Shown here: in pieces, positions 22,056-48,266 of the stretch | Layout: each line of letters starts with the position of its first letter | Position numbering within the stretch: the first letter of the stretch is position 1 | Assembly: GCA_963711835.1 (NCBI GenBank) | Contig: CAVQFQ010000025.1 | Span: 32,001 to 96,000, forward strand | Direction of reading: 5' to 3' | From: an uncultured delta proteobacterium | Lineage (GTDB): Bacteria; Desulfobacterota; RBG-13-43-22 | Length of the DNA stretch: 64,000 nt | The notes under the pieces: generated by a model | Database searches by the model: none | Told to the model about the DNA's origin: nothing | What the model saw: the letters and a program-made list of their open reading frames with translations, nothing else | Position numbers and translations under genes: made by a program

Positions 22056-23079
22056 TTATTTAAAATAATCGTCCCGGGCCTTTTTGAGCTGCTGAATATT
22101 CTCCAGGGGGGACCGGGGGGCGATCCCGCAGCCCGGGCAAAGAAAATCCGTGCCGTTTTCGAGGGCCTGGATGGATTCCTTATAGACCTCCTCCGGTGTT
22201 CCGCTGAAGAGAGTGGTGGCCGTGGCTACATTTCCAAAGACTTTAACTCCGCTTTTGTGGGCGATCTCCACCGCCCGCTTTAGGTCCGCTTTTTCTTCGA
22301 TGCTAATCCCGACCGCTCCCGTGGCGCACATCAATTCGATAATCGGATCGGTATCGGCACAGACGTGTAAAACCACCGGCCCCTTGATGCTGCTGATGAT
22401 TTCCTTTTCCAAAGGTAAAACAAATTTTTCATAAATTTTTGGGCTGAGGAGGGCCGGACCGGAAGTGGGTTCGGCAAAGACATAGAAATCGGCCCCCAGG
22501 TCAAAGGCGAAATTGGCGGCCGCTATGGCGGCCTGTTTGGTGACTTCAAAGGTCTTCAGCAGGGCATCCGGTTTTTTAAAGACCCATTTCATGAAGAGCT
22601 CGGTCCCCACCAGGTTGGCGGCGCAGGTAAAGGCCCCCTCCGATTCGCCGAAGATAACCATCGTCTCTCCGACTCTTTCTTCGAGCAGCCTGAAATTTTC
22701 TTTATAAACCGGAAAACGACCCCGGCTTAAAAAGTCGGCCGGGAATGCCAAATTTTCAACGCCTTCGGCATAGGGGTGTTCCTTGATAAAATACTGGCGA
22801 TCGATCTCCGGCTTGCCCATGCCGCACCCCATAGCCTGGCTTAAAGGAATGATATCCCAGCCCATGGCCTTGACCCATTCAAAGTGCCCATAGACATGTC
22901 CCGCCATGGCCAACTCGGTCATGGCCTTCGGATCGTCATCCGCCAGGGGCCTCTCATAGCCGCATTTCTTCATAAAATCGACTACGCCATAGGTTGTTGT
23001 ACGAGCCTACCGGGGTCTTGTCGACCTCTTTCCCCTGCAGTTGGTTTAAAAACCTTTTTTTTAAACTCAATTCTTCCAT
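22056..23079 (-). CDS. MtaA/CmuA-family methylcobamide methyltransferase (apparent +1 frameshift near 23000)
   Basis: LHVCA and PGCGIAP Zn motifs; upstream frame MEELSLKKRFLNQLQGKEVDKTPVG with GGAGG RBS supplies the missing N-terminus. Confidence 0.85.
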
Positions 23080-23313
23080 CTTGGGCCTCCTTATATTTAA
23101 AAAAATGAATAATTTCCTTTTTAATTAGCTTAAACTAAAATACCACCGTTTTCAAATGATTTAATAACTCGACTATAAATTTCCTCTTTGCTATACTTCT
23201 TGTCCATCTCATTTGCATTGGGACCTCATCTGACGGATAATTTTCTGGTGTCCGGGTCTCACGTTATCGACATCTGACCAGACCCTCCATTTATTTGAGA
23301 AAGGTCTAAAACT

Positions 23314-23835
23314 ATGTACTTAGACTTACGGAGTGCCCTTGTCCGTGATGGCAACCGGGTCACTTTTTTTGGACTTCCCATTGCCTTGCATTGCCACCAC
23401 TACAATATTAATCTCCAAAAAACAGCGGAAGACATTTTGGGAGCGGAAGGGATTGAACTCCTCTTCCGGGCCGCTGAAGAGGCCAGCCATATGGGATTTA
23501 AAGCCATTTTAGGTTGGTATGATCGGATTAAGACCACAAAATCGAAATTGGAATTGGCCGCTTCGGTTTATCAAAACTGCGGATTAGGCGTTATCCATTT
23601 CCAACAAATAGATCCCAAGAAAGGTCGGGTAGTCAGTACCTCCAGTTATCATGTCACCGGATGGTTGGCCAAGCATGGCATTCGATCAACTCCGGGTTGC
23701 CATTTTTCCCGAGGCTGGATCGCTGGGGTTCTGGAAGTCATTTACGATCGACCCATTGGATATTTTGCTGTGAATGAGCGGGCCTGTAAGATGATGCGAA
23801 AAGAGAAATGTATTTTCGAGGTGAAGGAGCGTTAA
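23314..23835 (+). CDS. V4R (4-vinyl reductase) domain protein
   Basis: CGLG...PGCHFSRGWIAG...ERAC...CIFEV. Confidence 0.75.
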   Translation: MYLDLRSALVRDGNRVTFFGLPIALHCHHYNINLQKTAEDILGAEGIELLFRAAEEASHMGFKAILGWYDRIKTTKSKLELAASVYQNCGLGVIHFQQIDPKKGRVVSTSSYHVTGWLAKHGIRSTPGCHFSRGWIAGVLEVIYDRPIGYFAVNERACKMMRKEKCIFEVKER

Positions 23836-24435
23836 GTGGCCATTGATGGAAATAAAATAATTCAAGCTTTCATGGAAGGAAGTCGGATTCGGGATGAAAA
23901 GGGGATTATTCCTATCTTTGGGGTATATCTTTCCCTTTTTTTTGTCCAATATTATAATCGCCTTTCCTTTGATTTTGAAAGAAGGCTGGGTGAAGAGCGA
24001 CAAGCGGAGGCAGAAGCTTATCTGATTCAAGCCGCTCAAGAATGTGGCTATGCCACGTTTCATGGGCTACTCAATTCCTGGGAATGGGAAAACCTCGTTA
24101 AACCTATGATTGAGAAGGAAGAAGATAAGCTTCTTGGATTCACCGCTGTGGCTTTGGCTGCCGGGTGGGGTGATTTGAGCATAAGAAGCCTCATTCCTGG
24201 GGAAAAGCTCGTTGTCTATGTAAATGAATCCTATGAGGCCACAGGCTACCTCCAATCCCACGGTCGTGCCGGTTCAGGAAAATGTTTTATGCTTCGCGGG
24301 GTAACGGGAGCCTTTATGGATGTCCTCTACGGAGAAGACTATCCGGACGGCTGCTTCACATTTTTAGCAGAAGAGCCTCTCTGCCGGGCCAAGGGAGATG
24401 TTCATTGTGAGTTCGAAGTCCATAAAAAATCCTAA
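23836..24435 (+). CDS. V4R domain protein
   Basis: GWG...CFMLRG...EPLCRAKGDVHCEF. Confidence 0.75.
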   Translation: MAIDGNKIIQAFMEGSRIRDEKGIIPIFGVYLSLFFVQYYNRLSFDFERRLGEERQAEAEAYLIQAAQECGYATFHGLLNSWEWENLVKPMIEKEEDKLLGFTAVALAAGWGDLSIRSLIPGEKLVVYVNESYEATGYLQSHGRAGSGKCFMLRGVTGAFMDVLYGEDYPDGCFTFLAEEPLCRAKGDVHCEFEVHKKS

Positions 24436-26673
24436 AGGTTTTCAAAGGGAAGCCAACCTCGTTACCGGGCCAACTTGTTGGGAATACTTGGCCTGTTCCA
24501 AGGTGTTCTGTCCGGCATACGATAAAAGAAACCTGACCTGCTGGACCGTTTCTAAAACTCATTGCAGCGAAGAGGTCAGTGATGATTTCTTTAAAAAAAT
24601 AGCGGCCTGTGTGGTTTGCCCATACTTCAAAAAAATAGGTGACCAGGACCCAAGCGGATGGAATTATTTTCTGGCTGAGCAGATCCGCCAATATAATTTT
24701 AAGGCCTTGGGGCAGATCTATCAAAAGGAAGAAAGCTTTATCGAAATCTTGGATCGCATCCCCGATGGGCTTTTTACCATCGATCAGGAATGGAGGATCA
24801 CTTACTTTAATCCGGCGGCCGAAAAAATCACCGGTTTTTCAACCCACGATGCGGTAGGGATGTATTGCAAGGACGTTTTAAAAAACACGATTTGTGAGAC
24901 CGATTGTGCTCTGAAACGAGCTGTGGCTAACGGTACCTACACCTATCATCAGGAGCAGATGATAACCAATATTGAAGGGAAAAAGATTCCGATTATCTGT
25001 TCAACCTCCGTCTTTTTAGATAACGAAAGGCGAATTACCGGGGGCATTGAGATATTCAAAGATATTACGGAACTGAGAAATCTCCAGGAGGAAATTTTAA
25101 GAAGGGAAAGAAAGTACCGGCGCATCTTTGAAAGCAGTAATGACATGATTTATATTTCTAATCAGGGAGGCGCAATTCTGAATGTAAACCAGGCTGGGGT
25201 GGATATGCTCGGATACCGCAGCAAAGAGGAGTTGATGGGCATCAGATCGGTAAGACAACTGTACCGAAGTACCCGAGATCGTGATCTTTTCATGGAACGG
25301 ATCAATCGAGACGGGTACGTCAAAGATTTCGAAGTAGATTTGAAGCGGAAAGACAAATCGCTTGTCCATGTGCTCATTTCCAGCCGGCGCCATATAAATC
25401 CCGAAACAGAAGAAATCGAGTTCGAGGGAATTATTAAAGATATTACTCAGCGCAAAAAGGCAGAGCAAGCCCTCAAACAACGAAACCGGGATCTCTCCAT
25501 TCTCAATACGATTGCTTTGGGTTTGAATATTACCATGGATTTGGATCAACTCTTGAGAATGACTCTAAAAAATATTATTAAGATGCTGCGAATACAAAGC
25601 GGGGCCCTGTTTCTGATTGACCGGGAAAAGAAAAAGGTCTTGCTCCAAGGGGGATATGGATTACCCGTCCAGGAACCCGGGCGCCTGGGCGAAGTTTTCT
25701 TTAAGGATATCCCCTTGATGAATTTCCTTTTAGACGAGGATGGGAAGCTTCCACCAAAACCAAAGTTTCCTCCCTTTCAGGTAACTTACCCGGGAGAAGG
25801 TGGGAGGCCGGTTCCTTGGTTGTTTAGTTTTCTTATAACCTCACGGGGCAAATGCCTGGGATTCTTTGGCCTGGATCTTCCGCTCACAAAAATGCTAAGC
25901 CCCCATGAAGTGCATTTGCTCTCTTCTTTGGGCAATTTTTTAGGTGGAGCCATAGAAAATACTCAACTCGTTGAAACCATAAGGCGCCATCGACAAGAGC
26001 TGCGAAAACTAACTGAGAAGCTATTCCAGAGCCAGGAAGAGGAACGACGTCGTATCGCTCGGGAATTGCATGACGAAGCTGGCCAGGCCATGACGGGGAT
26101 TAAATTGGGGTTGGATAGGCTGGAAGGGGCTGTGCCGGATGATAACCAAATTCTTAAAGAAGAAATAGATCAAATCAGGAAGATGGTGACCCGCACTTCT
26201 TCGGAAATCAGACAGCTCTCCTATCGACTCCATCCTACGCTACTGAGCGACCTTGGCCTGGAGCCGGCTCTGGACCTCTATTTAAAGAGCGTGGCCAACC
26301 AGTCGAAAATGAACATCGACTTTCGCATGGTGGGATTTGACCACCGCCTGGACGCTGATATTGAAACCGTGCTCTATCGCTTCAGCCAAGAGGCCTTGAC
26401 CAACACGCTAAAACATTCCGGAGCGGAAAACTTTCACCTCTCAATCATCAAGGGGTCACCAAAAATTATTTTTTTAGCTGAGGATGATGGGATTGGATTC
26501 GATGGCCGGATCATAGGAAACAACAAGAGGAGTTTGGGGTTACTGGGTATGCGGGAGCGGGCTTCCCTTTTAGGAGGAACCTTCCAAATCCGAAGCCAAC
26601 CCATAACCAGGGTACCCGAATTCGTATTGAAATTCCCTTAAACGAGGTGCAGAGCCATGGCACAAACGATTAA
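24398..26673 (+). CDS. Sensor histidine kinase: Cys-rich CW domain, 2xPAS, GAF, HisKA_3 (frameshift near 26603; start uncertain)
   Basis: CWEYLAC..C..CW..C..CxxC; ERRRIARELHDEAGQ; DDGIGF; GLLGMRER; the alternative frame restores NQGTRIRIEIPL as in the paralogue. Confidence 0.88.
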
Positions 26674-27321
26674 AATTCTACTGGTTGACGACCATACCAT
26701 TGTCAGGCAGGGACTGGCTCGCTTATTGGAGGATCAACCTGGTTTTAAAGTGGTGGGGGAAGCGGTGAATGGTAGGATTGCCGTTGAAAAGGCACAATCA
26801 CTAAAACCGGATGTCATTATAATGGATATCGCCATGCCTTCTTTAAACGGCATTGAAGCCGCCAAAAGAATACGCAAGCTCCTCCCCAATACCAAGATAC
26901 TGATTCTATCCATGTATTCTCAAGAAAATTATATTCACGAACTTTTAGAAGCCGGGATATCGGGATATTTATTAAAAGACACCTCCAGCGGTCCTGATAT
27001 TGTTCATGCTATTGAAGCGGCCATGAAGGGTGAAACCTCCCTAAGCCCGTCCGTGTCCAAATTGTTGGTGGATCGGTATCTCTCACTCCGAAAAAGTTCT
27101 CCCAAGGAAGAACGCTTCAATCAGCTATCCGATCGGGAAAGGGAGGTCTTACAGCTCATTGCCGAGGGCATTCGACCAAAAAGATTGCCGATCTACTCTG
27201 TATCAGCATTAGCACGATTAAAACCCATCGGGCCAAGGTTATGGAAAAACTGGAATTGCGCACCACACCCCAATTAATATATTTTGCTATTCAGCTCGGT
27301 TTGGTTGAGCAGGAACTTTAG
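26657..27321 (+). CDS. NarL/FixJ-family response regulator (-1 frameshift near 27167)
   Basis: DDH, MDIAMP, LSDREREV; restoring one G gives GHSTKKIADLLCISISTIKTHR...EQEL*. Confidence 0.88.
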
Positions 27322-27958: not shown

Positions 27959-29005
27959 ATGTCGGTCTTCAACTCAAGAGAAAGAGTCCTTCGACTTTTT
28001 CGTCGTGAACCGTTGGATACCATGCCCGTGTTTAGTGGGATGGGTATGGTTACTATCCAGGCTATTCGTAAGATGGGGATCCCTTTTCCCCAGGTCCATA
28101 AATCGGCGGAATACATGGCCCGGGCGGCCTTGACTTCGGCTGAAATCTTCGGTTTTGATGCCGTGGTTATCCCTTATGATATGTGTACCGTTCCCGAAGC
28201 CCTGGGCCGTGGGGTGAGCCTTTATGAGGACTCTGAGGATATCCTTTACCCTACCGTTCCAACCAAATGGGAAAGCCTGGAGGCAGTGGAAATTCCCCCG
28301 AATTATCTTTCTTTGGGTCGGATGCCTTTGGTGGACAAGGCATTCGGTCTTTTAAAGGCCCAGTCGGATCAGGGGTTGGCCATCGGGGGATGGGTCTTGG
28401 GACCTTTTACCATGGCCGGACAACTCCTGGAACTGGATTTTCTCTTAAAAGGAATTAGAAAGGATAAAGAACGTATCGAAGCTTTTCTGGCCACCATGAC
28501 TGATCTGGTGATTGAAGTAGCACGACATTATCAGGCCCTGGGACTTGATTATATCACGATCAGGGAAATGGGTTCAGGGACGGATCTCCTTTCCCCGCGT
28601 ATGTGGACGACCATCATTGAACCCAACCTAAAAAGGCTTTTTGCCGCTATCCAATCACCCAAGATTCTCCATATCTGCGGTTCCACCGACCTGATTATCG
28701 AAATGATGAATAACTGCGGGGCCGATGCCCTTAGTGTGGATCAGAAAAACAATTTAGCCTTATCTCGAAAAAAGTTGGGGAATGAAGTGCTGCTTTTAGG
28801 TAATTTCGATCCCTACCGTACTCTAGTGCATATGGACCCTTCTCAGGTGGAGTCGATTATTAAGAAGTGTATCGATGACGGTGCGGATGCGGTCTGGCCA
28901 GGATGTGACTTGTGGCCTGATGTGAATGAAGAAAATCTGAAAGTTGCTTTAAATACCATAAAGACTTATGGTCGCAAGCCGAGTCCCGCAGTCGGAAGGC
29001 TCTAA
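27959..29005 (+). CDS. MtaA/CmuA-family methyltransferase
   Basis: URO-D fold, GPFT, LHICG, PGCDLWP. Confidence 0.9.
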   Translation: MSVFNSRERVLRLFRREPLDTMPVFSGMGMVTIQAIRKMGIPFPQVHKSAEYMARAALTSAEIFGFDAVVIPYDMCTVPEALGRGVSLYEDSEDILYPTVPTKWESLEAVEIPPNYLSLGRMPLVDKAFGLLKAQSDQGLAIGGWVLGPFTMAGQLLELDFLLKGIRKDKERIEAFLATMTDLVIEVARHYQALGLDYITIREMGSGTDLLSPRMWTTIIEPNLKRLFAAIQSPKILHICGSTDLIIEMMNNCGADALSVDQKNNLALSRKKLGNEVLLLGNFDPYRTLVHMDPSQVESIIKKCIDDGADAVWPGCDLWPDVNEENLKVALNTIKTYGRKPSPAVGRL

Positions 29006-29030: not shown

Positions 29031-29693
29031 ATGGCAAGCAAGGACGAATTGCACAAGGTCTTAAAGGAGGGAGTAATTAACTTTCAGGAAGAGGAAGTCA
29101 GGGAGGGGGCTCAAAAGATTCTGGCGGAAGGGTACGATCCTCTGGAAGCGGTCATGGATGGGCTCGCTGCCGGGATGCTGGTCGTGGGAGATCTTTATGA
29201 ACGCAACGAGTATTTCGTTCCCGAGGTGCTCATGTGCGCCGATGCCCTGTATGCCGGGTTGGACATTTTAAGACCCCATATCCCGAAAAAGGAAGGCAAT
29301 ATCAAGGGGCAGGTCGTTATCGGGACCGTTCAGGGGGATGTCCATGATATCGGTAAGAACCTAATTAAGATGATGTTTGATGTAAGCGGTTTCCAGGTTC
29401 ATGATCTGGGTCGGGATGTCCCCGTGGAGAAGTTCGTGGCGGAACAGATGCGCACCGATTCCGAAATCGTCGCCCTGTCGGCGATGATGAGTACAACCAT
29501 GCTGGGCATGAAAAAAGTAATCCAGATGATCAAGGAAAAAAATCCCAACGTAGCCATTATGCTGGGTGGGGCACCGGTTTCTCAGGATGTAACCAAGTTG
29601 TTCGGTGCGGATGGCTATGCCGAATCGGCAGGTAATGCCGTTGAAGAGGCCATAAAAATGATCGGCCGTCTCCGGGAACTTAAGAAGGCGTAA
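29031..29693 (+). CDS. Methyltransferase corrinoid protein
   Basis: EYFVPE, GDVHDIGKN, SAMM, GGAP. Confidence 0.93.
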   Translation: MASKDELHKVLKEGVINFQEEEVREGAQKILAEGYDPLEAVMDGLAAGMLVVGDLYERNEYFVPEVLMCADALYAGLDILRPHIPKKEGNIKGQVVIGTVQGDVHDIGKNLIKMMFDVSGFQVHDLGRDVPVEKFVAEQMRTDSEIVALSAMMSTTMLGMKKVIQMIKEKNPNVAIMLGGAPVSQDVTKLFGADGYAESAGNAVEEAIKMIGRLRELKKA

Positions 29694-29834: not shown

Positions 29835-31892
29835 TTGAAGGATAACAACGCGACTGTGATTTTCCAACCTTCTGGCCGCAGAGGGCTTGTTGAGAAAGGG
29901 ATTTCTTTAATTGAGGCTTCCCGAAGGTTGGGTGTAGACATCGAGGCCTTATGTGGGGAGAAAAAGAAGTGCGGCAAATGCAAGATTCGGATTGAAGAGG
30001 GTTTTTTTGAAAAGTTCGGTATTCAATCCAGCCTGTCCCATACGTCTCCCTGGTTGGAAGAGGAAGATAAGTATGTCAATGAACAGGAGAAGAACACCGG
30101 TTATCGCCTGGGATGTGTTGCCAATGTTGAGGGGGATCTTTTGGTCTTCGTACCGGAAGAATCCCGGGCCGGCAAACAGGTGGTGAGTAAAAAGGCCCGG
30201 GACATCTACATCGAGCATAACCCGGCCGTCAGGATCTATTATGTCGAAGTGGACCCGCCTACTTTTGAGGACCCTACCGGCGATTTTGAACGAATCTGTA
30301 GGGAGCTGGAAAAACAATATGGGCTTGGCAAGTTAACGATCGACTTCTTCACCCTTCGGCAACTCCCCATGGCCCTTCGCGATGGAGACTGGAAAGTGAC
30401 CGTGAGCATCTGGAATGACCTTGAGATCATCCGGGTGCGGCCCGGCAAGGCCGAGGCTGCTTATGGAATCGCCATTGATGTGGGGACTACCACCGTGGCC
30501 GGGTATTTTTGCAATCTCAACACCATGGAGGTTGTAGATACCGTCACCCTGATGAATCCTCAGTGTAAATACGGGGAAGACGTCATGGCCCGAATTACCT
30601 GTCATATGACGAACCCGGACGGCCTCAAACGGATGAGCGACGACATTATCGAGGGCCTGAACTGGATCATCGGTGAGGCCGTTAAGAACACCTTTCCTCC
30701 CAAGAAAAAGGTAAAAAGATCTGACGGGGAGGAAGGCCCTGAGGAATGGGTGGAGGTGCCGGAAGAAGGGAAGACCTATCTCCGGCTTACCTTGGATGAT
30801 GTCGAGGATGTAACCATTGGCGGGAATACAGCCATGCATCATATCCTGCTCCAGCTCAACCCGGAATTTGTGGGGATGGCCCCCTTTCCTCCGGTGATTC
30901 ATCACAGCCTGGATGTCAAGACCCGGGATATCGGTCTCAATATTAACCGCGGATCCTATGTCTTCGTCCTGCCAAATGAGGCAGGTTTCGTGGGGGCCGA
31001 TAATGTGGGGGTGCTTATCGCAGAGGAACCCTATAAGTCCGATGAGACCCAGCTTATCATTGATATCGGGACAAACGGCGAGCTGGTTCTGGGCAACAGG
31101 CACAAGCTGATATCCTCCTCATGTGCTACGGGCCCGGCCCTGGAAGGGGCCCAGCTTCAATTCGGCATGCGGGCCGCCCCGGGGGCCATTGAACGGATCA
31201 AAATTGATCCGGAGACCCATGAAGTGGATTACAAGGTGATCGGGCGGGATGCCTGGCGGCAGTACTCCGAACCCAAGGAGATGAAGACCAAGGGAATCTG
31301 CGGATCGGGGATCCTGGATGTCTTGGCCGAACTTTATCGTTCCGGGGTTATTATGAAGAGCGGTGTGTTCAGTAAGAATCAAAAATCGAACCGCTCCCGT
31401 ATTAATCCGGAAACCAAGCAACCTGAATTTGTGATTGCCTGGGCAAATGAGACTAGTATCGGGCGGGATGTGGTAATTTCCCAAAAGGATATCAGACAAA
31501 TCCAACTGGCCAAAGGAGCCCTATATTGCGGATGTAAATTGATGATGCGGCGTATGGGTATTGATAAGGTGGAGATAGTAAAGATTGCCGGGGCTTTTGG
31601 TACCCACGTAGACCGAGAAAAGGCCTTGATCATGGGTCTATTCCCGGATTGTGCGATCGACAAGATTGTTTCCATAGGAAACGCCGCCGGGGATGGAGCT
31701 AGGGCGGCCCTGTTGAACCGGGAAAAACGGATTGAGGCCAACTGGGTCTCCCGCAATGTGGAATATATTGAATTGACGGTGGAAAAGGATTTCCAGGTTC
31801 AATTTATGGAGGCCATGCAGATACCCCATATGAAGGATGCCTTTCTCCATTTGGAAGGATTGGTAAGAGCTGAAATTCTTCACCAGAAATAA
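29835..31892 (+). CDS. ASKHA-type ATP-dependent reductive activator of corrinoid proteins (RACE/RamA-like, DUF4445)
   Basis: N-terminal 2Fe-2S (CG...CGKC...RLGC), DVGTTT, GFVGAD, DIGTNGE, GPALEG, GICGSG, GNAA. Confidence 0.92.
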   Translation: MKDNNATVIFQPSGRRGLVEKGISLIEASRRLGVDIEALCGEKKKCGKCKIRIEEGFFEKFGIQSSLSHTSPWLEEEDKYVNEQEKNTGYRLGCVANVEGDLLVFVPEESRAGKQVVSKKARDIYIEHNPAVRIYYVEVDPPTFEDPTGDFERICRELEKQYGLGKLTIDFFTLRQLPMALRDGDWKVTVSIWNDLEIIRVRPGKAEAAYGIAIDVGTTTVAGYFCNLNTMEVVDTVTLMNPQCKYGEDVMARITCHMTNPDGLKRMSDDIIEGLNWIIGEAVKNTFPPKKKVKRSDGEEGPEEWVEVPEEGKTYLRLTLDDVEDVTIGGNTAMHHILLQLNPEFVGMAPFPPVIHHSLDVKTRDIGLNINRGSYVFVLPNEAGFVGADNVGVLIAEEPYKSDETQLIIDIGTNGELVLGNRHKLISSSCATGPALEGAQLQFGMRAAPGAIERIKIDPETHEVDYKVIGRDAWRQYSEPKEMKTKGICGSGILDVLAELYRSGVIMKSGVFSKNQKSNRSRINPETKQPEFVIAWANETSIGRDVVISQKDIRQIQLAKGALYCGCKLMMRRMGIDKVEIVKIAGAFGTHVDREKALIMGLFPDCAIDKIVSIGNAAGDGARAALLNREKRIEANWVSRNVEYIELTVEKDFQVQFMEAMQIPHMKDAFLHLEGLVRAEILHQK

Positions 31893-31903: not shown

Positions 31904-32248
31904 ATGCAGAAAGACCAACCAGAGAAGAGAGGCGTCCAAGTATCCGTGGAACCGGGTATTTGCGGCTTTTCTTGTACGATCAAGGCCAGGATAAAGGAAC
32001 GCTGGTCAGTGCAACTGGAAATTAATTCCGGCTGTGAGCAGATCCAGAACCTTTCTAACCTCTTGAAGGATATTACGGTCAAGGATTTGTTTTTGCCTAT
32101 AACCCGGAATCCTCTTTATCTTTCGGCTGAACAAGCGGGTTGTCACCCTTCCTGCGCGGTTCCGGTAGCGGCGGTTAAAGCGACCGAAGTGGCCATGGGG
32201 ACAGCCCTGCCGCAAGAGGTCAAGATTGAATTCGAGGTCATGAAATAA
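31904..32248 (+). CDS. Small Cys-rich protein (DUF6951-like)
   Basis: PGICGF, SGC, HPSCAVP; paralogue at 47919. Confidence 0.7.
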   Translation: MQKDQPEKRGVQVSVEPGICGFSCTIKARIKERWSVQLEINSGCEQIQNLSNLLKDITVKDLFLPITRNPLYLSAEQAGCHPSCAVPVAAVKATEVAMGTALPQEVKIEFEVMK

Positions 32249-34498: not shown

Positions 34499-34552
34499 TC
34501 ATGAAGGAAGGACTTTCCAAAAGTGTTTGGATATCAGAAAGGGGATTGGGCC

Positions 34553-37524: not shown

Positions 37525-37647
37525 AAAATAAACCGGTGAATTTTCACCTACTGAGGCGGATATCTTATTTTTCAAATATAAAATAATACCTCCCGATCGA
37601 TCATGTCGGTTAAACGGATTGTTTGTACCTGTGATGAAAGGAGCTGC

Positions 37648-40477: not shown

Positions 40478-41135
40478 AGCGGTTACCGTACTGTTGGCCG
40501 ACGACCATACCATTGTCCTCCAAGGCTTGGCCAAGTTATTGGAAGGGGAACCGAACATCCGGGTGGTGGGGGAAGCGCACAACGGGCGGGAGGCCGTCAA
40601 TAAGGTGGAGGAATTAAAACCCGATGTGATCGTGATGGACATCGCCATGCCCATTTTAAACGGCATTGAGGCCACCCGTCAGATCAAAAAAATCCGCCCT
40701 CAAAGCAAAGTCATCATCCTATCCATGCATTCACACGATCGTTTTATCAATGAACTTTTTTCTCTGGGGGCCTCGGGCTATCTTCTGAAGGATTCTACAG
40801 GCCAGGACATCATTCGGGCGATTCAGGCCGCCGTCAGGGGAGATACCTACTTGAGTCCTTCCATTTCCCGGCGGGTTATAGAAAACTATGTTTCCTTGAA
40901 AAAAAATAAATCCTCCCAGGAAGAACTTTACAGTCAACTTTCAAACCGGGAGCGGGAAGTGTTCCAGATGATCGCCGAGGGGCGTTCCACGAAAGAAATT
41001 GCCGATATTCTTTATGTCAGCCAAAGTACGGTAAAGTCCCATCGCGCCAATATCCTGGAAAAACTGCAGATAGAAAACCTTAGCCAGCTCATCCAGTTTG
41101 CCATTTCCTTGAACCTAGTGGAAATCCAGCAATAG
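40467..41135 (+). CDS. NarL-family response regulator
   Basis: DDH, MDIAMP, LSNREREV HTH; start at MADKAV. Confidence 0.93.
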   Translation: MADKAVTVLLADDHTIVLQGLAKLLEGEPNIRVVGEAHNGREAVNKVEELKPDVIVMDIAMPILNGIEATRQIKKIRPQSKVIILSMHSHDRFINELFSLGASGYLLKDSTGQDIIRAIQAAVRGDTYLSPSISRRVIENYVSLKKNKSSQEELYSQLSNREREVFQMIAEGRSTKEIADILYVSQSTVKSHRANILEKLQIENLSQLIQFAISLNLVEIQQ

Positions 41136-41296: not shown

Positions 41297-42244
41297 GTGT
41301 TCCAGATAGAAACAGCACAAAAAGTGTGCCAGGTCGGAGGGGTGAAGTTCGGGGGGCAACCTGGAGAATATCCTACCGTGGTCTGTTCCTCCATCTTCCA
41401 AAAAGGAGACAAATTATTTCTGGGAAAAAGGCAGGAGGGCTTTGATGAAAAGCGGGCCGCGGAACTCCTTAAGACCCAGGACAAGCTCTGGCAGGAGACC
41501 GGGGTGCCGGGCATGGCCGATATCGTGGCCAATACCGGCAGTGAATTTAAGACTTATATTGATTTTGTGACCTCAGTGAGTAATATGCCCTTTTGTATCG
41601 ATGCCTGGACTATGAAACCCAAACTGGAGGGGGCGGCCTATTGTGCCGAAAAAGGCCTGCTGGACCGGATGTTTTATAACAGCCTGACGGTCTGGGAAAA
41701 GGATTTGGAGACCGAAATCAAGGAAATTGCCCAAATCGGCGTAAAACACGTGCTCCTGGTGGCCTTTGATATGGCGGATCAATTACCCAGTGGGAGAATC
41801 GCCGGCACCCAAAAACTACTTGATGCCATTGATAAGGTGGGGGCATCCTTTGAAAGCCTATTTGTTGACACTTCGGTCATGAACGGACCGGCCACGGCTT
41901 TTTGTGGCCTGGCCAACCGTCTGATTAAGGAAAAATGGGGCTTCCCCACCGGAAGCGCTCCGAGTAACGGATCGTATATGTGGAAAAAGGCCCGGGAAAT
42001 GTGGGGGTTCACGGGCTGGTCGGCGGTCGATGCCGGTTTGGAGTCCCTGGCCTCCTTTCTATACCATGACATCATCTTTTCCGGTCCCATGGCCGGTGCC
42101 CCGAGAATCTTTCCGGCCGTGGCCATGGCCGATGCCTTTTTAGCCACGGCGGTTTTTGCCGAGAGCAAGCGGTTGCCCCAGGATCCGAACCATCCGCTAT
42201 TTAAGCTCTTTCCGGAATTTGTGGAGCAACTCAAAAAGATTTAA
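41297..42244 (+). CDS. MtrH-family methylcorrinoid:tetrahydrofolate methyltransferase (MtgA/CmuB-like)
   Basis: GGVKFGGQPGEYPTV N-terminus, YNS, G.APSN. Confidence 0.88.
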   Translation: MFQIETAQKVCQVGGVKFGGQPGEYPTVVCSSIFQKGDKLFLGKRQEGFDEKRAAELLKTQDKLWQETGVPGMADIVANTGSEFKTYIDFVTSVSNMPFCIDAWTMKPKLEGAAYCAEKGLLDRMFYNSLTVWEKDLETEIKEIAQIGVKHVLLVAFDMADQLPSGRIAGTQKLLDAIDKVGASFESLFVDTSVMNGPATAFCGLANRLIKEKWGFPTGSAPSNGSYMWKKAREMWGFTGWSAVDAGLESLASFLYHDIIFSGPMAGAPRIFPAVAMADAFLATAVFAESKRLPQDPNHPLFKLFPEFVEQLKKI

Positions 42245-42341: not shown

Positions 42342-43022
42342 ATGGCTTCAGAAGAAAGAACAAAAGAACTAATGAAAGCCCTTCAGGAGGCGGTAGTCAA
42401 CTACGATGAGGACAAGGTCAAGGAATTGTCTCAGGCCGTTATCGATGAAGGGGCGGATCCCTTTACGGCTACCATGGACGGTTTGGCTGAAGGGATGATT
42501 CAGGTTGGGGATCTTTATAATAAAAAGGAATACTTCGTCCCCGAGCTCCTGATGTGCGCCGATGCCCTGTATGCAGGACTGGACCTTCTGAAGCCCGCCA
42601 TTGAGGCTTCCGGGAGAAAAAGCGAATCCAAGGGTTCTATCGTGCTCGGGGTGGTCGAAGGCGATGTCCACGACATCGGTAAAAACCTGATCAAGATGAT
42701 GTTTGAGGTGGCCGGCTGGACCGTTTATGACTTGGGTAAAGACGTGCCTTTGGACCGGTTCTTGGAGGAACAGTTGAGGACGGACTCGGATATCGTCGGG
42801 CTTTCGGCCTTGATGACTACCAGCATGATCAGTATGCCCGAGATCGTCAAGAAGCTGAAGGAGAAAAATCCCAAGGTTCGGGTTATGTTGGGCGGCGCCC
42901 CCATTACCCCGGAAGTGGTGGAAAAGTACGGCGCCGACGGCTACGCCCGGGATGCCGGGACGGCCGTAGACGAGGCCATTAAATTGATTAAGATGCTCCG
43001 GGAAGAAGAAAAGGCAAAGTAA
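42342..43022 (+). CDS. Methyltransferase corrinoid protein
   Basis: EYFVPE, GDVHDIGKN, SALMTT, GGAP. Confidence 0.93.
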   Translation: MASEERTKELMKALQEAVVNYDEDKVKELSQAVIDEGADPFTATMDGLAEGMIQVGDLYNKKEYFVPELLMCADALYAGLDLLKPAIEASGRKSESKGSIVLGVVEGDVHDIGKNLIKMMFEVAGWTVYDLGKDVPLDRFLEEQLRTDSDIVGLSALMTTSMISMPEIVKKLKEKNPKVRVMLGGAPITPEVVEKYGADGYARDAGTAVDEAIKLIKMLREEEKAK

Positions 43023-43160: not shown

Positions 43161-46100
43161 ATGCCGAGTGGGGAAATTGAAAAAGTTTTAGTCATTTTTC
43201 AACCCTCAGGATGTCGAGGGCACATCGAACCAGGAAAGACCCTCAAACAGGCCTCCGTGGCCTTAGGCGTGGATATTGAAGGGGTCTGCGGGGAACAGGC
43301 TATTTGCGGGACCTGCAAGGTTCGGGTCGAGGAAGGGGAATTCGAAAAATACGGTATCCGCTCCACCCGAGATCATCTTTCCGCTATGGGGCCTTCGGAG
43401 AGAAAATTCTTTAACCTGCGGCAGGTCGACGAGGGCTACCGGCTGGCCTGTCAGGCCCAGATCCTGGGCGATGTGGTTATCTTCGTCCCGGAAGAAAGCC
43501 GGATGGGTAAGCAGGTGGTCCGAAAGGCGCCTACCGCGCGGCCGATTGAAATCAAACCGGCGGTCAGAAAATATCCGGTCGAGCTGATCAAAGCCACCCT
43601 GGAAGACAATATCGGTGATTGGGAACGATTGACGGCGGCCCTGGAGGAAAAATACGGCCTGAAGCAGTTGACCTTAGACTACGAAGTGCTCATGGATTTA
43701 CAGACCATCGTCCGCCAGGGGGAGTGGAAGATTACGGTTACGGTCTGGCAGGGCCGGGAAGTGATCCGGGTCGAACCCGGAATCAAGGAAAAGGGCTATG
43801 GGCTGGCGGTCGATGTGGGCACTTCCACGGTAGCCGGTTACTTGTGCGATATAAGCGATGGGACGGTGATCGCCACCGCCTCCATGATGAATCCCCAGAT
43901 TGTCTATGGGGAAGATGTCATGTCCCGGATCAGTTACACCATGACCAATTCGGACGGCTTGGAGATCCTGAACCAGGCTATCGTGGACGGTCTGAACGGT
44001 ATCGTGGCCGAAGTAGCGGAAACCGCCGGTATCAAGCGCCAGGATATCCTGGATATGAGCATCGTAGGCAACACCTGTATGCACCATATCTATTTGAACA
44101 TCGATCCCAAGTACATCGGGCGTTCTCCCTTTGCGCCGAGTTTACACCATTCGATGGATATCAAGGCCCGTGATTTCGGCTTCAAGATTCCCCAGGAAAA
44201 AGAAAGGGAAGACAAAGGGAAGTATGCCCCCTGCCGGGTGGAATGTCCGGCGGGGGTTAACGTCGATGATTTCTTATATCTCATGGCGCAGCATAAGTTT
44301 AAAGAGGCCCTGGAACTGGTCCGATTATCCTATCCCTTTTCCGGCGTCTGCGGTCGGGTCTGTACCCATCCCTGCGAAGGGATATGCGAAAGGGGTAAAG
44401 TGGATGCGCCCATTTCCATCCGGGCGGCCCATCGTTTTCTGGCTGATTATGAATTGACCCAGGGAAGGGAAAAGGCCGCTCCCGTGGAATTGAAAAAGGC
44501 CTCCCGGATCGCTATCGTAGGTTCCGGGCCGGCCGGTCTGGCCTGTGCTTATGATTTGATTCGCCGGGGACACCCTATAACCGTTTTTGAGGCCAAGGCC
44601 CAGGCCGGAGGTATGCTGCGCTACGGCATTCCGGAATACCGGCTGCCGAAAGGTATTCTGGAAGATGAAATCCATTACCTGGAAGAGTTGGGTGTGGAGA
44701 TAAAGACCAATACCGCCGTGAAAAACGTGGAGGATATCTTCAACGAGGGATATCAAGCTATCTTCCTGGCGACCGGGACCTGGAAAAGCCAGAAATTGAA
44801 CCTACCGGGGGAAGACAGCCCGGATGTAATCTATGCCCTCGATTTTCTAAGAGAGGTGAATTCAGGCGAGAAAGTCGGACTGGGCGGCCGGGTGGCGGTT
44901 ATCGGCGGAGGCAGTGTGGCTGTGGATGCAGCCCGGCTATCCAAGCGTCTGGGCGCCCGGGAAATTCACCTGATCTGTCTGGAATCCACCGACCTGACCT
45001 GCCGGGATCGGATGCCGGCCCAGGATCTGGAAATCGAACAAGCCCGCCAAGAAGGGATTATTATCCATCCTTCCCTGGGCGTTGGGAAAATTATCTCCGA
45101 AGAGGGCAAGGTCAAGGCGGTCGACACAGTCGGTTGTGTGTCGGTTTATGATGCCGAAGGCCGGTTTGACCCGCAGTTTTCCAAAGAGCCCGCTCCCTCG
45201 ATTTCCGTAGATACCGTGATTGTGGCCGTAGGCCAGAGGGCCGAGGATAACGTTTTCTCGGAAATCAATCGGCACTCTTCGGGGATCATCCAGGTTGATG
45301 AAATTACTCTCGAAACAAACCAAAAGGGGGTTTTTGCCGGTGGTGATGTAGCTACCGGCCCCGCCAATGTGATCAAGGCCGTTCGGGCCGGAAAAGAGGC
45401 CGCTATTTCCATCGAGCTTTATCTGGCCGGGATGGATATGAAGGAAGACCGGCCTAAACCTTTAAAGGCTGTCGAAGATGTACCCAAAGAAGGGGTCAGG
45501 AAAGAAGCCCGCCAGGAGGTTCCGGAACGGCCCCTGGATCAGCGTCAGGGTTTTGATGAGGTGGAATTGGGCTTTGAGGAATCCCAGGTGGTTCAAGAAT
45601 CGCTCCGCTGTCTCCACTGCGCGGTGTATGCCCAGAAGGACGTCTCCGATGGTGAAGAGGCCCGGGGCTGGGGTATCAAAATCGCCCCCGGGGCGTACAT
45701 CCATTGTCTGCCGATTGAGGCCGGTTTTGTAGGGGCCGATAATGTGGGCGTGCTGATTGCCGAAGCACCCTATAACCAGGATAGCCTCGAGCTGGTTATC
45801 GATATCGGCACCAACGGGGAAATCATTCTGGGCAACCGGAAGAGGTTGATTTCCGCTTCCTGCGCCACGGGACCGGCCTTTGAGGGGGCCCAGTTGCGTT
45901 TCGGTATGCGGGCCGCCCCTGGGGCCATTGAAAAAATTGAAATTGATAAAGAGACCCAGGAGGTCCGTTTCAAGGTTATTGACGAGACCCGCTGGAATAC
46001 CGAAATGAAACCGGAAGAGATAAAGGCCAAGGGCATCTGCGGCTCCGGTATCATTGATGCCATCCCGCAACTCTTCTTAGCCGGTATTATTGATAAAACG

Positions 46101-46613
46101 GGAAAGTTCGTTAAAGAACTCCAGCATCCCCGGTTGCGGCAAGTGGAGGGTCAATACGAATACATTATTGCCTGGGCCCACGAGACCTCCATCGGCCAGG
46201 ATGTGGTCGTCTGCCAGGATGATATCCGGGCCATCCAGTTGGGTAAGGCCGCCATGTACGCCGGCAGCAAAATCCTGATGGAGACCCTGGGGATTGAAAA
46301 GCTGGACAAGGTGATTTTAGCCGGGGCCTTCGGAAGTTACATTGACAAGCTGTCGGCCGCGATTCTGGGGATGTTCCCGGATTGTGATCCCAAAAATGTG
46401 TATTCGGTAGGCAATGCGGCCGGGGACGGGGCTCGGATGGCTTTGCTCAATGTCGATAAACGGAGAGAGGCCGATGAGTATGCCAGAAAGGTGGAGTATA
46501 TCGAGCTCACCATCTCCCCGAGATTCGAAAAGATATTTGCCCAATCGATGTGGTTTCCCCATATGAAGGACCCTTTTCCGAACTTGCAGGAGTATCTCCC
46601 GGCCAAGAAATAG
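43161..46613 (+). CDS. ASKHA corrinoid activator with an inserted GltD/SudA-like FAD/Fe-S oxidoreductase module
   Basis: RACE motifs on both sides of an insert containing APCRVECP, CGRVCTHPCE, GSGPAG, GGGSVA, FAGGD and RCLHC. Confidence 0.9.
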   Translation: MPSGEIEKVLVIFQPSGCRGHIEPGKTLKQASVALGVDIEGVCGEQAICGTCKVRVEEGEFEKYGIRSTRDHLSAMGPSERKFFNLRQVDEGYRLACQAQILGDVVIFVPEESRMGKQVVRKAPTARPIEIKPAVRKYPVELIKATLEDNIGDWERLTAALEEKYGLKQLTLDYEVLMDLQTIVRQGEWKITVTVWQGREVIRVEPGIKEKGYGLAVDVGTSTVAGYLCDISDGTVIATASMMNPQIVYGEDVMSRISYTMTNSDGLEILNQAIVDGLNGIVAEVAETAGIKRQDILDMSIVGNTCMHHIYLNIDPKYIGRSPFAPSLHHSMDIKARDFGFKIPQEKEREDKGKYAPCRVECPAGVNVDDFLYLMAQHKFKEALELVRLSYPFSGVCGRVCTHPCEGICERGKVDAPISIRAAHRFLADYELTQGREKAAPVELKKASRIAIVGSGPAGLACAYDLIRRGHPITVFEAKAQAGGMLRYGIPEYRLPKGILEDEIHYLEELGVEIKTNTAVKNVEDIFNEGYQAIFLATGTWKSQKLNLPGEDSPDVIYALDFLREVNSGEKVGLGGRVAVIGGGSVAVDAARLSKRLGAREIHLICLESTDLTCRDRMPAQDLEIEQARQEGIIIHPSLGVGKIISEEGKVKAVDTVGCVSVYDAEGRFDPQFSKEPAPSISVDTVIVAVGQRAEDNVFSEINRHSSGIIQVDEITLETNQKGVFAGGDVATGPANVIKAVRAGKEAAISIELYLAGMDMKEDRPKPLKAVEDVPKEGVRKEARQEVPERPLDQRQGFDEVELGFEESQVVQESLRCLHCAVYAQKDVSDGEEARGWGIKIAPGAYIHCLPIEAGFVGADNVGVLIAEAPYNQDSLELVIDIGTNGEIILGNRKRLISASCATGPAFEGAQLRFGMRAAPGAIEKIEIDKETQEVRFKVIDETRWNTEMKPEEIKAKGICGSGIIDAIPQLFLAGIIDKTGKFVKELQHPRLRQVEGQYEYIIAWAHETSIGQDVVVCQDDIRAIQLGKAAMYAGSKILMETLGIEKLDKVILAGAFGSYIDKLSAAILGMFPDCDPKNVYSVGNAAGDGARMALLNVDKRREADEYARKVEYIELTISPRFEKIFAQSMWFPHMKDPFPNLQEYLPAKK

Positions 46614-46737
46614 GTGTTGGAGTGCAAAAAAGAATTGCGTGTGAAGAAAATTCAAAACGAACATCGAACATGAAATTTCGAATGACGAAGTGTTCTTTTT
46701 TTTGATAGGCATCATTCGTTAATTAAGGAGGCTAATC

Positions 46738-47775
46738 ATGATGGGAACGGAAATGAGTTCCAGAGAAAGGGTGCTGAAATTATTCAACAAGGAAAAGGTC
46801 GATCGTCTGCCCATTTTCAGCGGTATGGGAAACATCACCGTCCAAGGACTGGAGGGGACCAACTGGCGGTTTGCGGAACTACACGTGGATGCCGGAAAAA
46901 TGGCCAAAATGGCCGCCTCAACCGCCCAGCTTTTCGGCTTTGAATCTGCCGTAGTCCCTTTTGATATGGGCGTGGAAGCCGAGGCTTTAGGGGCCGGCGT
47001 TAATTTCTATGCCGGTCACACCGATATCGTTTATCCGACCATTATCAAGAAGGCGGCCGACAAGTTTCAGGATTTGAAGATCCAGGTCCCGGATTTATCC
47101 AAAGCCGGGAGGATCCCCTTGGTGGCCGAGGCCATTCGCATCCTGAAAGAACAGGTAGGGGATAAAATTGCTATCGGCGCCTGGGTGCTGGGTCCTTATA
47201 CCTTGGCCGGCCAGTTGACCGATATCGGCGATCTGGCCAAGTCCGCGTTCAAGAAAACGGCTCAAGTCCAGGAGGTCCTCAACCAATTGGCCGATGTCAT
47301 TATTGCCATTTCCAAGATTTACCGCCAGGCCGGGGCGGATTACATCACCATTCGGGAAATGGGAGCCGGTCCGGATATCTTAAGTCCTCGGATGTTCAAG
47401 GCCCTGATTCAGTCTCCCCTGGAAAAGGTCTTTGCCGGTTTGCAATCGCCCAAGATCCTGCATATTTGCGGCAGCACGGACACGATCATTGAGCAAATGG
47501 CCCAGTGCGGGGCGGAGGCCATCAGCGTGGACCAAAAGAATACCCTGGCGGAAACCCGAAAGAAGATCGGCAAGGATCTGCTGCTGTTTGGGAATTTCAG
47601 CCCTTATGATACCTTGGTTCTCATGGAGGCCTCGGAAGTGGACCCGGTCATTAAGAAGTGTCTGGAAGACGGTGCCGATGCCGTCTGGCCCGGATGTGAT
47701 CTTTGGCCGGATGTTAAGAAAGAAAATATGCAGGCCATGATGGCGGCCGCCTTGAAATACGGACAGCGCTCCTAA
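46738..47775 (+). CDS. MtaA/CmuA-family methyltransferase
   Basis: LHICG, PGCDLWP; close paralogue of 27959. Confidence 0.9.
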   Translation: MMGTEMSSRERVLKLFNKEKVDRLPIFSGMGNITVQGLEGTNWRFAELHVDAGKMAKMAASTAQLFGFESAVVPFDMGVEAEALGAGVNFYAGHTDIVYPTIIKKAADKFQDLKIQVPDLSKAGRIPLVAEAIRILKEQVGDKIAIGAWVLGPYTLAGQLTDIGDLAKSAFKKTAQVQEVLNQLADVIIAISKIYRQAGADYITIREMGAGPDILSPRMFKALIQSPLEKVFAGLQSPKILHICGSTDTIIEQMAQCGAEAISVDQKNTLAETRKKIGKDLLLFGNFSPYDTLVLMEASEVDPVIKKCLEDGADAVWPGCDLWPDVKKENMQAMMAAALKYGQRS

Positions 47776-47918
47776 GGGGAAACATCGGACCCATTTCGTA
47801 TTAAAGCAGGACCCGGGCTCTTGGCCCGGGAAGGGGATGAAAAGGCCAACCACCTTGACCGTTAGAGGTAAATTCGCGGAACAGGTTTTATAAGTACCTA
47901 TAGGGGAGCAACAGGCCT

Positions 47919-48266
47919 ATGACAAGAGTCCGGGTCAAATCCGGCGGCTGCGGCTTTGAGGCTCACATACACGTTCAAAAAACGGAGAGAAGAAAAGTAT
48001 CGGTCACGATAAGCAGTAACTGCCCCCAGGTAAGCTGCCTGGCCAAGGAATTGCCGGACCTGACCATGATGGAGGTGCTCAAGAGCCCCATCGATAAAAA
48101 CCCGGTCTATGAAAAAGCCGGGCAATGCGGATTACATCCCGGTTGCCCGGTGCCCTGCGGGGTCTTAAAAGCCGCTGAAGTTGAGCTTGAACTGGCCCTG
48201 AAAAAGGAGGCCGCCATTGAATTCCAGGAGGTAGGCCTCAAAGATCAAAAGGCAAACAAAGGTTAG
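47919..48266 (+). CDS. Small Cys-rich protein (DUF6951-like)
   Basis: GGCGF, SNC, HPGCPVP; paralogue of 31904. Confidence 0.7.
   Translation: MTRVRVKSGGCGFEAHIHVQKTERRKVSVTISSNCPQVSCLAKELPDLTMMEVLKSPIDKNPVYEKAGQCGLHPGCPVPCGVLKAAEVELELALKKEAAIEFQEVGLKDQKANKG

Follow-up and report, generated by a model that had tools for sequence, protein, structure and literature searches.

Introduction

[quoted passage not shown] ClMlp2 catalyses methylcobalamin:selenide methyl transfer with a KM of 80 uM, M. voltae Mlp2 (SdmC) is required for the use of dimethylselenide, and a His-Cys-Cys zinc site is tied to sulfur and selenium (S/Se) substrates (PMC10418091). The chloromethane enzyme CdmB is zinc-free. 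Here we describe a related gene cluster at positions 22056-48266 of a 64,000-nucleotide stretch (the window) of contig CAVQFQ010000025.1, in which MtaA-like zinc methyltransferases and corrinoid proteins are interleaved with genes predicted to contain selenocysteine (Sec) at UGA codons. The cluster is real and conserved, it is less unified than was first proposed, and its core chemistry has a close described precedent.

Dimethyl sulfide (DMS) and methanethiol are degraded by sulfate reducers (PMC10762971). For the demethylation of dimethylarsenic under anoxic conditions, no enzyme is known according to PMC10579292. In the literature we found no bacterial assignment of genes for the use of DMS or methanethiol by sulfate reducers, or for anoxic dimethylarsenic demethylation.

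A cassette of selenoprotein genes around one methyltransferase

All coordinates are positions in the window (Table 1); L and G numbers designate loci and genomes of relatives, and G000 is the host genome. The initial annotation had seen one integrated system in this cluster. Gene order in relatives indicates that it is instead a mosaic of three modules (A, B and C) found apart or alone in other genomes, and a single island conserved as a whole was therefore rejected. Module C, which contains the genes for a TsoX-thioredoxin reductase (TrxR) fusion, (CobW and a C-GCAxxG-C-C protein, CGC), the HMA-fold protein HMA1, the methyltransferase MtaA2 and a second HMA-fold protein, HMA2, is the only module linked to Sec. 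Orthologues of MtaA2 at 79-99% identity were found in six other loci (L006, L030-L033 and L041), which were selected through MtaA2 and one of which (L030) comes from a near-identical strain. HMA1 lay directly upstream of MtaA2 in all five loci with DNA on that side, and HMA2 lay directly downstream in 5/5 loci with DNA on the other; TsoX-TrxR was found upstream, with the same UGA, in the three loci out of three that reach far enough (L006, L032 and L041). All UGAs of module C were kept in the sister loci, and the order HMA1-MtaA2-HMA2 is fixed across taxonomic orders. HMA1 was detected in none of 330 other genomes of the phylum and a close MtaA2 in none of 400, while strong HMA2 matches appeared in one of 20 family genomes and one of 31 genomes around G408, both adjoining MtaA2. 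A Corr1-like gene (70%) lies within the cassette of L032, and an MtrH gene (70%) follows HMA2 in L006, at the contig end. The cassettes of L032 and L041 begin with TsoR-like, TsoA-like and DsrE-like (UGA) genes, and L031 carries a shorter version. The corresponding operons (L032:380-8600 and L041:5298-11214) hold about seven UGA genes (TsoA-like, DsrE-like, TsoX-TrxR, HMA1, HMA2, ArsM/AhpD), and their ArsM protein has a C-terminal U-x-x-stop-like tail.

Module B (MtaA0-Corr2-RACE2-MtaA3, 75-87% identity) occurs alone in seven family genomes (L010, L011, L012, L014, L016, L018 and L019), and no match to the Sec genes of the window was found near it in these seven. Module A consists of two V4R proteins, a histidine kinase (HK), a response regulator (RR), MtrH, a flavoprotein and MtaA1, with Corr1, RACE1, DUF6951 and CobW where the contig allows. 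It was found in eight genomes of two families (loci L020-L026 and L066-L069), where it occurs alongside small thioredoxin-fold proteins of other kinds, of which two have a UGA (HUIPC, over cut-off).

The remaining Sec gene of the window encodes a DF-family protein. No MtaA or corrinoid gene was seen by DF in the 20 loci examined (of 33 DF matches), none adjoining, nor by stand-alone TsoX in nine loci, three of them contigs under 10 kb; both were rejected as methyltransferase partners. Thus the co-occurrence of Sec genes with methyltransferases, put forward initially for the whole set, held for TsoX-TrxR, HMA1 and HMA2, which these neighbourhoods tie to a single methyltransferase, MtaA2. It failed for stand-alone TsoX and for DF, which the 20 loci indicate to be a passenger. 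Two-Sec DF genes stand immediately upstream of genes for ACR3, an arsenite exporter, at about 9600-11200 in L079, L080, L081 and L084, a functional hint for the DF family.

Selenocysteine codons and machinery

The four UGA genes contain six UGAs in total (two in DF, one in TsoX-TrxR, one in HMA1 and two in HMA2). By every test available to sequence analysis these are selenoprotein genes, as initially read: two HMA-fold proteins, a two-Sec thioredoxin-fold protein and a UxxC-TrxR fusion. Chance is an inadequate explanation because Sec machinery is present, the UGAs are kept in orthologues and SECIS-like (selenocysteine insertion sequence) hairpins follow them. A check of the genome for selA, selB, selC and selD recovered all four, selA, selB and selD over cut-off and selC as tRNA-Sec. 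In alignments with homologues the UGAs fall on Cys positions, and orthologues at 46-81% identity retain them. A TGGA in the loop of a predicted hairpin was found 20-23 nt past five of the six UGAs, and the sixth shares the hairpin of its neighbour; the background, counted over a wider window of 19-34 nt, was 57 of 1034 stop TGAs. The motif was picked after viewing these sequences, in a crude SECIS test of our own without Rfam match; it also occurs past the UGA of selD. The stop TGA of TrxR was rejected as a read-through Sec codon, no hairpin following it. That of CobW passes the crude hairpin test, but CobW and the next gene are separate in orthologues, and read-through was rejected here too.

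Comparison with curated profiles placed TsoX and DF in known families, over cut-off, and left HMA1 and HMA2 below the cut-off of any curated model. Both the DF and TsoX families already stand in a review table of selenoprotein families (PMC13188914). The TsoX domain, over the NF045809 cut-off, carries an HSGxxxU motif. In HMA1 the one Sec takes the place of the second Cys in the CxxC loop, and a C-terminal Cys is conserved. The predicted model of HMA1 has an HMA fold, beta-alpha-beta-beta-alpha-beta with a metal loop (predicted local distance difference test score 78; template modelling score 0.87 to MerP), from an input alignment that included five ordinary HMA sequences. Set against NF041115, a UxxU metal-binding selenoprotein, HMA1 and HMA2 have the same fold and form separate subfamilies. 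The best NCBIfam match of HMA2 was MerTP (E 4e-12, far below cut-off). This match and the MerP-like predicted fold of HMA1 would suit an oxidative demethylation of methylmercury, in which the UxxU HMA protein would capture CH3Hg+, MtaA2 would pass the methyl group to Co(I) and the carbon would end as CO2. However, the window scan revealed no merA, merB, merT, hgcA or saoL, mer genes were not found in the gene maps of the sister loci, HgcA had no match in the host genome (89% complete), and a two-Sec MerB-like lyase lies on a separate contig, C4. We therefore consider methylmercury an extremely improbable substrate.

Six HMA1 matches and the five nearest full or partial HMA2-type matches yielded no Cys version of either protein, and the close homologues present in protein sets end at the UGA or have Trp there. 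The fixed gene order together with the absence of a Cys version among these homologues suggests a dedicated role that requires selenium. Both observations argue against the view that the Sec genes are support genes, providing Zn/Co delivery and thiol-redox upkeep for oxygen-sensitive Zn-thiolate and corrinoid proteins, and that they have collected between cobO and methylmalonyl-CoA mutase at a hotspot of insertion. Such a role would agree with the mosaic structure, with the lower GC content across 23-38 kb (0.46-0.50 vs 0.528 for the genome), with the DF and stand-alone TsoX tallies and with the different small thioredoxin-fold proteins occupying the same place in relatives. It would also suit CobW, which we take to be a metallochaperone, and the HMA folds, as chaperones. 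On balance we judge it unlikely.

Zinc sites and the identity of MtaA2

The S/Se-type His-Cys-Cys zinc site expected of MtaA-like enzymes is kept in all four of the window, as H-x-C plus a C-terminal Cys in the alignment to M. mazei MtaA (4ay7, E 1.3e-47). By regular expression, these motifs were matched by 120 of the 120 top homologues of MtaA1 and both zinc motifs by 81 of 88 homologues of MtaA2, and in the MtaA2 family the zinc residues H240, C242 and C322 are invariant in 21/21. The NF004889 cut-off (244) was passed by two of the four proteins (247.8 and 272.4), and that of TIGR01463 (235.4) by none, the best score being 233.9. The MtaA1 family comprises 2170 clusters at E<=1e-70. The MtaA2 clade comprises 17 clusters at identities of at least 79%, including Phosphitispora fastidiosa (P0013), whose orthologue is 80% identical.

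The same zinc site bears on a further possibility, namely that the cluster resembles mec, cdm or mto and demethylates halomethanes or O-methyl compounds. The parts list of mec is the one seen here (MtaA/CmuA, MtrH, corrinoid protein, activator and HK/RR), but the sites here are His-Cys-Cys while CdmB lacks zinc, and neither the mec order nor MecJ was seen in the window. Moreover, the accessible text on mec reports no homologues above 35% outside degraders of dichloromethane (DCM) or chloroform (bioRxiv 2021.08.30.458270). Such a system is thus hardly to be expected here.

The next kin of MtaA2, at 35-46% identity, belong to clusters in which an Mlp3-like enzyme is joined by a corrinoid gene, a RACE gene or both (L007, L028, L044, L045 and L046). 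In a careful tree of 36 of the 88 collected rows, MtaA2 fell into a clade (support 98/96) with the Mlp2-like members of these five clusters; a quick tree of all 88 agrees. MtaA0, MtaA1 and MtaA3 fell outside the MtaA2 clade, and the cluster partners of the Mlp2-like genes formed an Mlp1/3-like clade, a topology that agrees with the one described for type 1 mlp clusters (PMC10418091). From cluster make-up and the shape of these trees, from which the characterised ClMlp2 and SdmC sequences were left out, we infer that MtaA2 is an Mlp2-like enzyme.

A possible route for methyl-sulfur and methyl-selenium compounds

The reading that we favour, tentatively and at a little less than an even chance, is that the cluster demethylates methyl-S/Se compounds and sends the methyl group to corrinoid and then to tetrahydrofolate (THF), the Sec-HMA proteins catching freed selenide. 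Zinc-bound methyl-S and methyl-Se groups would pass to Co(I)-corrinoid, RACE1 and RACE2 would hold the cobalt at Co(I), and the MtrH-type enzyme would deliver the methyl group to THF. MtaA1, MtaA3 and MtaA0 would act on bulk methyl-sulfur substrates (methanethiol, DMS, methyl thioethers), oxidised by the sulfate reducer. The MtaA1 family is large, as would suit an abundant substrate, for example methanethiol or DMS. MtaA2 would bind CH3-Se- on zinc and give its methyl group to Co(I); its small cassette fits selenium salvage. The Sec-HMA proteins would then take up the released selenide as a protein-bound adduct, or present the methylated element in that form. TsoX-TrxR, drawing on NADPH, would return these proteins to the reduced state, and YedF, presumably a sulfurtransferase-like protein of selenium metabolism, would relay selenium to SelD. 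In support of the relay, YedF adjoins module C. S/Se substrates are favoured because all four His-Cys-Cys sites are kept, while CdmB is zinc-free, and the methyl-selenide role is assigned to MtaA2 because it is a clade-mate of Mlp2-like enzymes, the characterised ClMlp2 and SdmC acting on selenium. The path from methyl group to corrinoid to THF, already proposed in the initial annotation, gained from the homology of the MtrH-family protein to the methylcorrinoid:THF methyltransferase MtgA and from the presence of the Wood-Ljungdahl pathway.

Several observations weigh against this reading. The Mlp2 label derives from cluster make-up and a tree without ClMlp2 or SdmC, and the cluster falls outside the type 1 mlp definition (MtrH present, no Mlp1 or Mlp3). 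The six sister loci were all chosen through MtaA2, with L030 from a near-identical strain. A close corrinoid protein was not found in G408, the genome of L006 (best 30%), the 20 kb examined with the G005 cassette contained no corrinoid gene, and no corrinoid methyl-carrier gene was seen near L041. HMA folds are known as metal carriers, not as selenide carriers. Finally, the arsenic-type genes of the sister cassettes, an ArsM-like selenoprotein and an ArsR-type regulator, are poorly explained.

These genes would find a place if module C were an anaerobic methyl-arsenic demethylase, working in reverse of ArsM chemistry: HMA1 and HMA2 would bind trivalent mono- and dimethylarsenic, MAs(III) and DMAs(III), MtaA2 would transfer the methyl group to Co(I)-corrinoid, from which it would reach THF, and TsoX-TrxR would act as reductant. 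Five sister loci have DNA downstream of HMA2, and three of these encode an ArsM-type Sec methyltransferase there, separated from HMA2 by one thioredoxin-like gene; the ArsM/AhpD selenoproteins of L032 and L041 pass NF041537 (529 and 626 vs 510), and that of L031 was identified by reading only. An ArsR-type regulator stands at the head of L032 and of L041. Four family DF orthologues with UGA lie directly before ACR3 (three pass TIGR00832 and the fourth is a fragment), and two family DF copies without UGA showed no sign of ACR3 in the BLAST map. The DUF2284 domain is fused to ArsM in NF041536, MTH895/ArsE-like and MIP-channel genes occur in module A relatives, and a methylotrophic methanogen is able to demethylate DMAs(III), although the mechanism is unclear (PMC10579292). 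On the other side, ACR3 had no match in the host genome (89% complete), the cassette of the window itself lacks an ArsM-like gene, the ArsM-like selenoproteins are predicted families with a putative substrate, As-C cleavage by an MtaA-family enzyme was not reported in the literature searched, and the nearest characterised relative acts on selenide. We find the arsenic reading, the best supported of the alternatives, somewhat unlikely, and a protein-carrier, B12-dependent route of C-As cleavage, which would have no known counterpart, is equally doubtful. Among the methylated metal(loid)s first suggested as substrates, methyl-arsenic thus kept support from the ArsM-type genes and from DF before ACR3, whereas methylmercury had only a fold in its favour.

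Predicted selenocysteine-containing MtaA-like proteins in relatives

In five family genomes, the place held by DF in the window is taken by an MtaA-like gene that reads APGU at the zinc-ligand Cys and has a CxxC thioredoxin-like gene directly after it. APGU genes were located at L023:5513-6544(-), L020:9404 and L022:7100 and in L024, L025, L026, L063, L066 and L068. The sample of 401 genomes gave 10 matches to this Sec-MtaA, eight with one TGA and two with Cys (G377 and G036), and none in the host genome G000. Sec-MtaA has a SECIS-like hairpin, its His ligand is replaced by Phe, and a CxxC thioredoxin-like domain always comes after it or is fused to it. The UroD/MtaA family was not among the 119 families in the accessible review table (PMC13188914), the terms are absent from the BSepDB main text, no dedicated NCBIfam model matched, and the literature text search returned none. 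Sec-MtaA is therefore a candidate for a new selenoprotein family.

The coupling of MtaA-like enzymes to small thiol proteins recurs, since in relatives they are fused to CxxC thioredoxin-like domains or stand before them; this speaks for the favoured methyl-S/Se reading. In another reading, the Sec-HMA proteins would replace coenzyme M (CoM) as protein-bound methyl carriers, MtaA2 methylating their selenol or repairing it by demethylation. Zn-bound thiolates are what MtaA enzymes act on, and HMA1 contains just one Sec. In addition, an MtmB-like MT1 and a corrinoid gene are followed, in G276 and G036, by an MtaA-thioredoxin pair or fusion in the slot of the CoM methylase. However, the MtrH-type THF methylase already present makes a CoM substitute unneeded, and we hold this reading to be very unlikely, preferring methyl-S/Se demethylation with THF as the sink.

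Two other arrangements were observed in these relatives. Non-methanogen clusters in L063:17237-19995(-) and L029:13118-18379(-) combine a corrinoid gene, an MtmB-like gene and an MtaA-thioredoxin pair or fusion. A THF methylase was not seen in them, and the methyl acceptor there may be the thioredoxin domain or sulfide. A thioredoxin-like UxxC (FRQU) selenoprotein, below the HUIPC cut-off, lies beside HUIPC in L023:3973-4269(-) and L021:5744-6088, in the same run as GcvH-like, DGC-domain and SMC-like genes.

Features of the cluster and its host

The features of the cluster are collected in Table 1. The inventory of the initial annotation (four MtaA-like enzymes, one MtrH, two corrinoid proteins, two RACE activators, two HK/RR pairs, CobW, the C-GCAxxG-C-C protein, YedF and DUF2284) was recovered in full. 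It had overlooked the two V4R proteins, which we assume to be regulators, the two DUF6951 proteins and the GltD-like insert of the second RACE. Its placement of all genes on one strand is right for the rest and wrong for the MtaA gene at 22056, which is divergent on the minus strand. MtaB, MttB and MtmB, reported missing from the window, had no match in the whole genome either (89% complete). Intergenic gaps from DF through HMA2 are at most 141 nt. The insert of RACE2 is a whole GltD-like NAD(P)H domain lying in the middle domain, conserved at 82-84% in seven family genomes; it is possible that it provides a built-in electron supply for corrinoid activation. The Rfam scan gave no matches, and the promoter/terminator scan of the cluster gave signals no better than chance. 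Short contigs from one RNA run (X10) fell on MtaA1, Corr1, RACE1 and TsoX but left 34122-36876 uncovered; they were not used as evidence of expression, for which contigs are unsuited.

Table 1. Genes and gene pairs of the cluster, with positions in the window and the matches on which each assignment is based.
Feature	Position	Strand	Evidence
MtaA0, MtaA-like Zn methyltransferase, module B, relocated and divergent	open reading frame 22056-22973, full extent 22056..23079	-	Pfam URO-D; 75-80% to family orthologues directly before Corr2
Two V4R-domain proteins, module A regulators (assumed)	23314..24435	+	weak V4R matches below cut-off; orthologues 57-70% in module A loci
HK1 (PAS-PAS-GAF-HisKA_3) and RR1 (NarL type)	24398..27320	+	both frameshifted near 3' ends
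DF-family thioredoxin-like selenoprotein, 2 Sec (predicted)	open reading frame 27612-27920, from ATG 27575	+	NF049942 92.7 vs cut-off 70; UGAs 27630, 27828
MtaA1, MtaA-like Zn methyltransferase, module A	27959..29005	+	Pfam URO-D; large environmental family
Corr1, corrinoid protein	29031..29693	+	profile matches
RACE1, ASKHA corrinoid reductive activator	29835..31892	+	profile match
DUF6951 protein a	31904..32248	+	profile match
TsoX(UxxC)-thioredoxin reductase fusion selenoprotein (predicted), module C	32276..33547	+	NF045809 94.3 vs 52; TIGR01292 359 vs 343; UGA 32327
CobW-family metal GTPase	33551..34498	+	profile match
DVU_1555-type C-GCAxxG-C-C protein	34523..34990	+	161.5 vs cut-off 103
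HMA1, HMA-fold selenoprotein (predicted)	35041..35259	+	UGA 35095; NF041115 37 vs 95 (below cut-off)
MtaA2, Mlp2-clade Zn methyltransferase (putative), centre of module C	35284..36333	+	Pfam URO-D; tree placement
HMA2, HMA-fold selenoprotein with UxxU (predicted)	36350..36580	+	UGAs 36395, 36404; NF041115 35.8 vs 95 (below cut-off); Pfam HMA 29.6 vs 24.8
YedF	36916..37524	+	TIGR03527 218.5 vs cut-off 110
DUF2284 protein	37603..38187	+	NF041536 joins this domain to ArsM
HK2 and RR2, paralogues of HK1/RR1 (45%, 57%)	38483..41135	+	profile and pairwise comparison
MtrH-family enzyme	41297..42244	+	NF002142 290.5 vs 287; MtgA structure 6sj8, E 5.5e-38
Corr2, corrinoid protein, module B	42342..43022	+	profile match and orthologues
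RACE2, module B activator containing a GltD-like NAD(P)H flavoprotein insert	43161..46613	+	orthologues 82-84%
MtaA3, module B Zn methyltransferase, MtaA-like, 49% identical to MtaA1	46738..47775	+	Pfam URO-D
DUF6951 protein b	47919..48266	+	profile match

Four single-base frameshifts were found within about 5 kb (22990-27620), in MtaA0, HK1, RR1 and DF. They lie at 23001/23003, 26599/26603, 27164 and 27608, exactly where contigs from other runs lack or add bases; the 5' end of MtaA0 is out of frame near 23001-23003, and a corrected base near 27608 puts the ATG at 27575 in frame with DF. The four are likely assembly errors, because contigs of close strains from other runs do not have them. The comparison used two or three other runs per frameshift, with strains 88-99% alike, so that strain-specific lesions are still conceivable. 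A pseudogene island is for the same reason unlikely and was rejected. Gene order up to 40 kb was seen independently, since contigs from other runs bridge HK1-RR1-DF, DUF6951a-TsoX and CGC-HMA1-MtaA2, and L030 spans CobW to HK2.

The named near homologues (Desulfocapsa, Syntrophaceae, Desulfobacteraceae and Deltaproteobacteria) and the presence of the Wood-Ljungdahl and dsr genes acsB and dsrA, both over cut-off, lead us to infer that the host is a Desulfobacterota sulfate reducer with a Wood-Ljungdahl pathway. The best-matching DNA datasets are sediment metagenomes; this habitat assignment leaves aside runs that shared few words. Elsewhere in the genome we noted a MerB-family gene that contains two TGAs in frame, its product passing the Pfam cut-off and its locus being separate from the cluster (G000:C4:133252-133944, +), a TsoR-TsoA-TsoB-like selenoprotein operon (G000:C13:71558-74184) and a fused UroD-like/corrinoid methyltransferase of 877 aa (G000:C10:10935-13568).

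Comparison with known systems

As far as genome comparison can tell, the new elements are the fixed Sec-HMA/Mlp2/Sec-HMA cassette with its TsoX-TrxR fusion, the predicted coupling to a THF methylase and the candidate Sec-MtaA family. No prior description of the module C cassette was found in the literature searched; Haft and Tolstoy 2025 may describe part of it. Two HMA selenoprotein subfamilies below any curated cut-off are thereby added, and relatives contribute a corrinoid methyltransferase with Sec as a predicted zinc ligand. Small soluble candidates come out of this cluster: the environmental MtaA1-like proteins, over 2000 in number and linked with a THF methylase, and the compact Sec cassette. 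The question of substrate can be directly tested, since an 80% orthologue of MtaA2 exists in a named species, Phosphitispora fastidiosa.

Like the SAO system, the cluster is a multi-selenoprotein arrangement in an anaerobe for which organometallic chemistry can be proposed (bioRxiv 2022.07.06.499078). SAO, however, is built on a MerB-like lyase and an ABC transporter, and the terms cobalamin and methyltransferase are absent from the accessible text of its paper. With the mec cassette (bioRxiv 2021.08.30.458270) it shares MtaA/CmuA, MtrH, a corrinoid protein, an activator and a two-component pair. In this comparison, made by description only, mec differs in having DCM as substrate, another gene order, the MecJ antiporter, which the window lacks, and no selenoproteins described in the accessible text. 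The fold and zinc ligands are those of the MtsAB and MtaA-type methylthiol:CoM methyltransferases of Methanosarcina (4ay7), whereas the host here is bacterial, an MtrH/THF sink would take the place of CoM, and the proteins are in a class of about 30% identity, below equivalog cut-offs.

With tso neighbourhoods (TsoR NF045707, TsoA NF045695, TsoX NF045809) the window shares a TsoX domain over cut-off, and the sister cassettes have TsoR-like and TsoA-like genes (below cut-off) at their start and NF041537 at their end. In contrast to these neighbourhoods, where stand-alone TsoX had no MtaA in nine loci, the TsoX of module C forms a fusion with thioredoxin reductase and accompanies a corrinoid methyltransferase; the TsoR-TsoA-TsoB-like operon of the host lies elsewhere (C13).

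The closest resemblance is to type 1 mlp clusters, from which the window departs in several respects. It has an MtrH-type THF methylase within 20 kb, which the definition excludes (PMC10418091), and none of its four enzymes is an Mlp1 or Mlp3, MtaA0, MtaA1 and MtaA3 belonging to other clades. The mlp core is co-directional with genes at most 2 kb apart, whereas MtaA0 is divergent here and MtaA2 lies 3 kb from RACE1. The Mlp2-like gene of the window is boxed by two Sec-HMA genes and TsoX-TrxR, an arrangement not mentioned in the accessible text of PMC10418091. Common to both are several His-Cys-Cys MtaA-like enzymes with corrinoid and RACE genes in a Sec-using anaerobe, neighbours tied to selenium, and an MtaA2 that nests in the Mlp2-like clade, as labelled from clusters of the L007 type.

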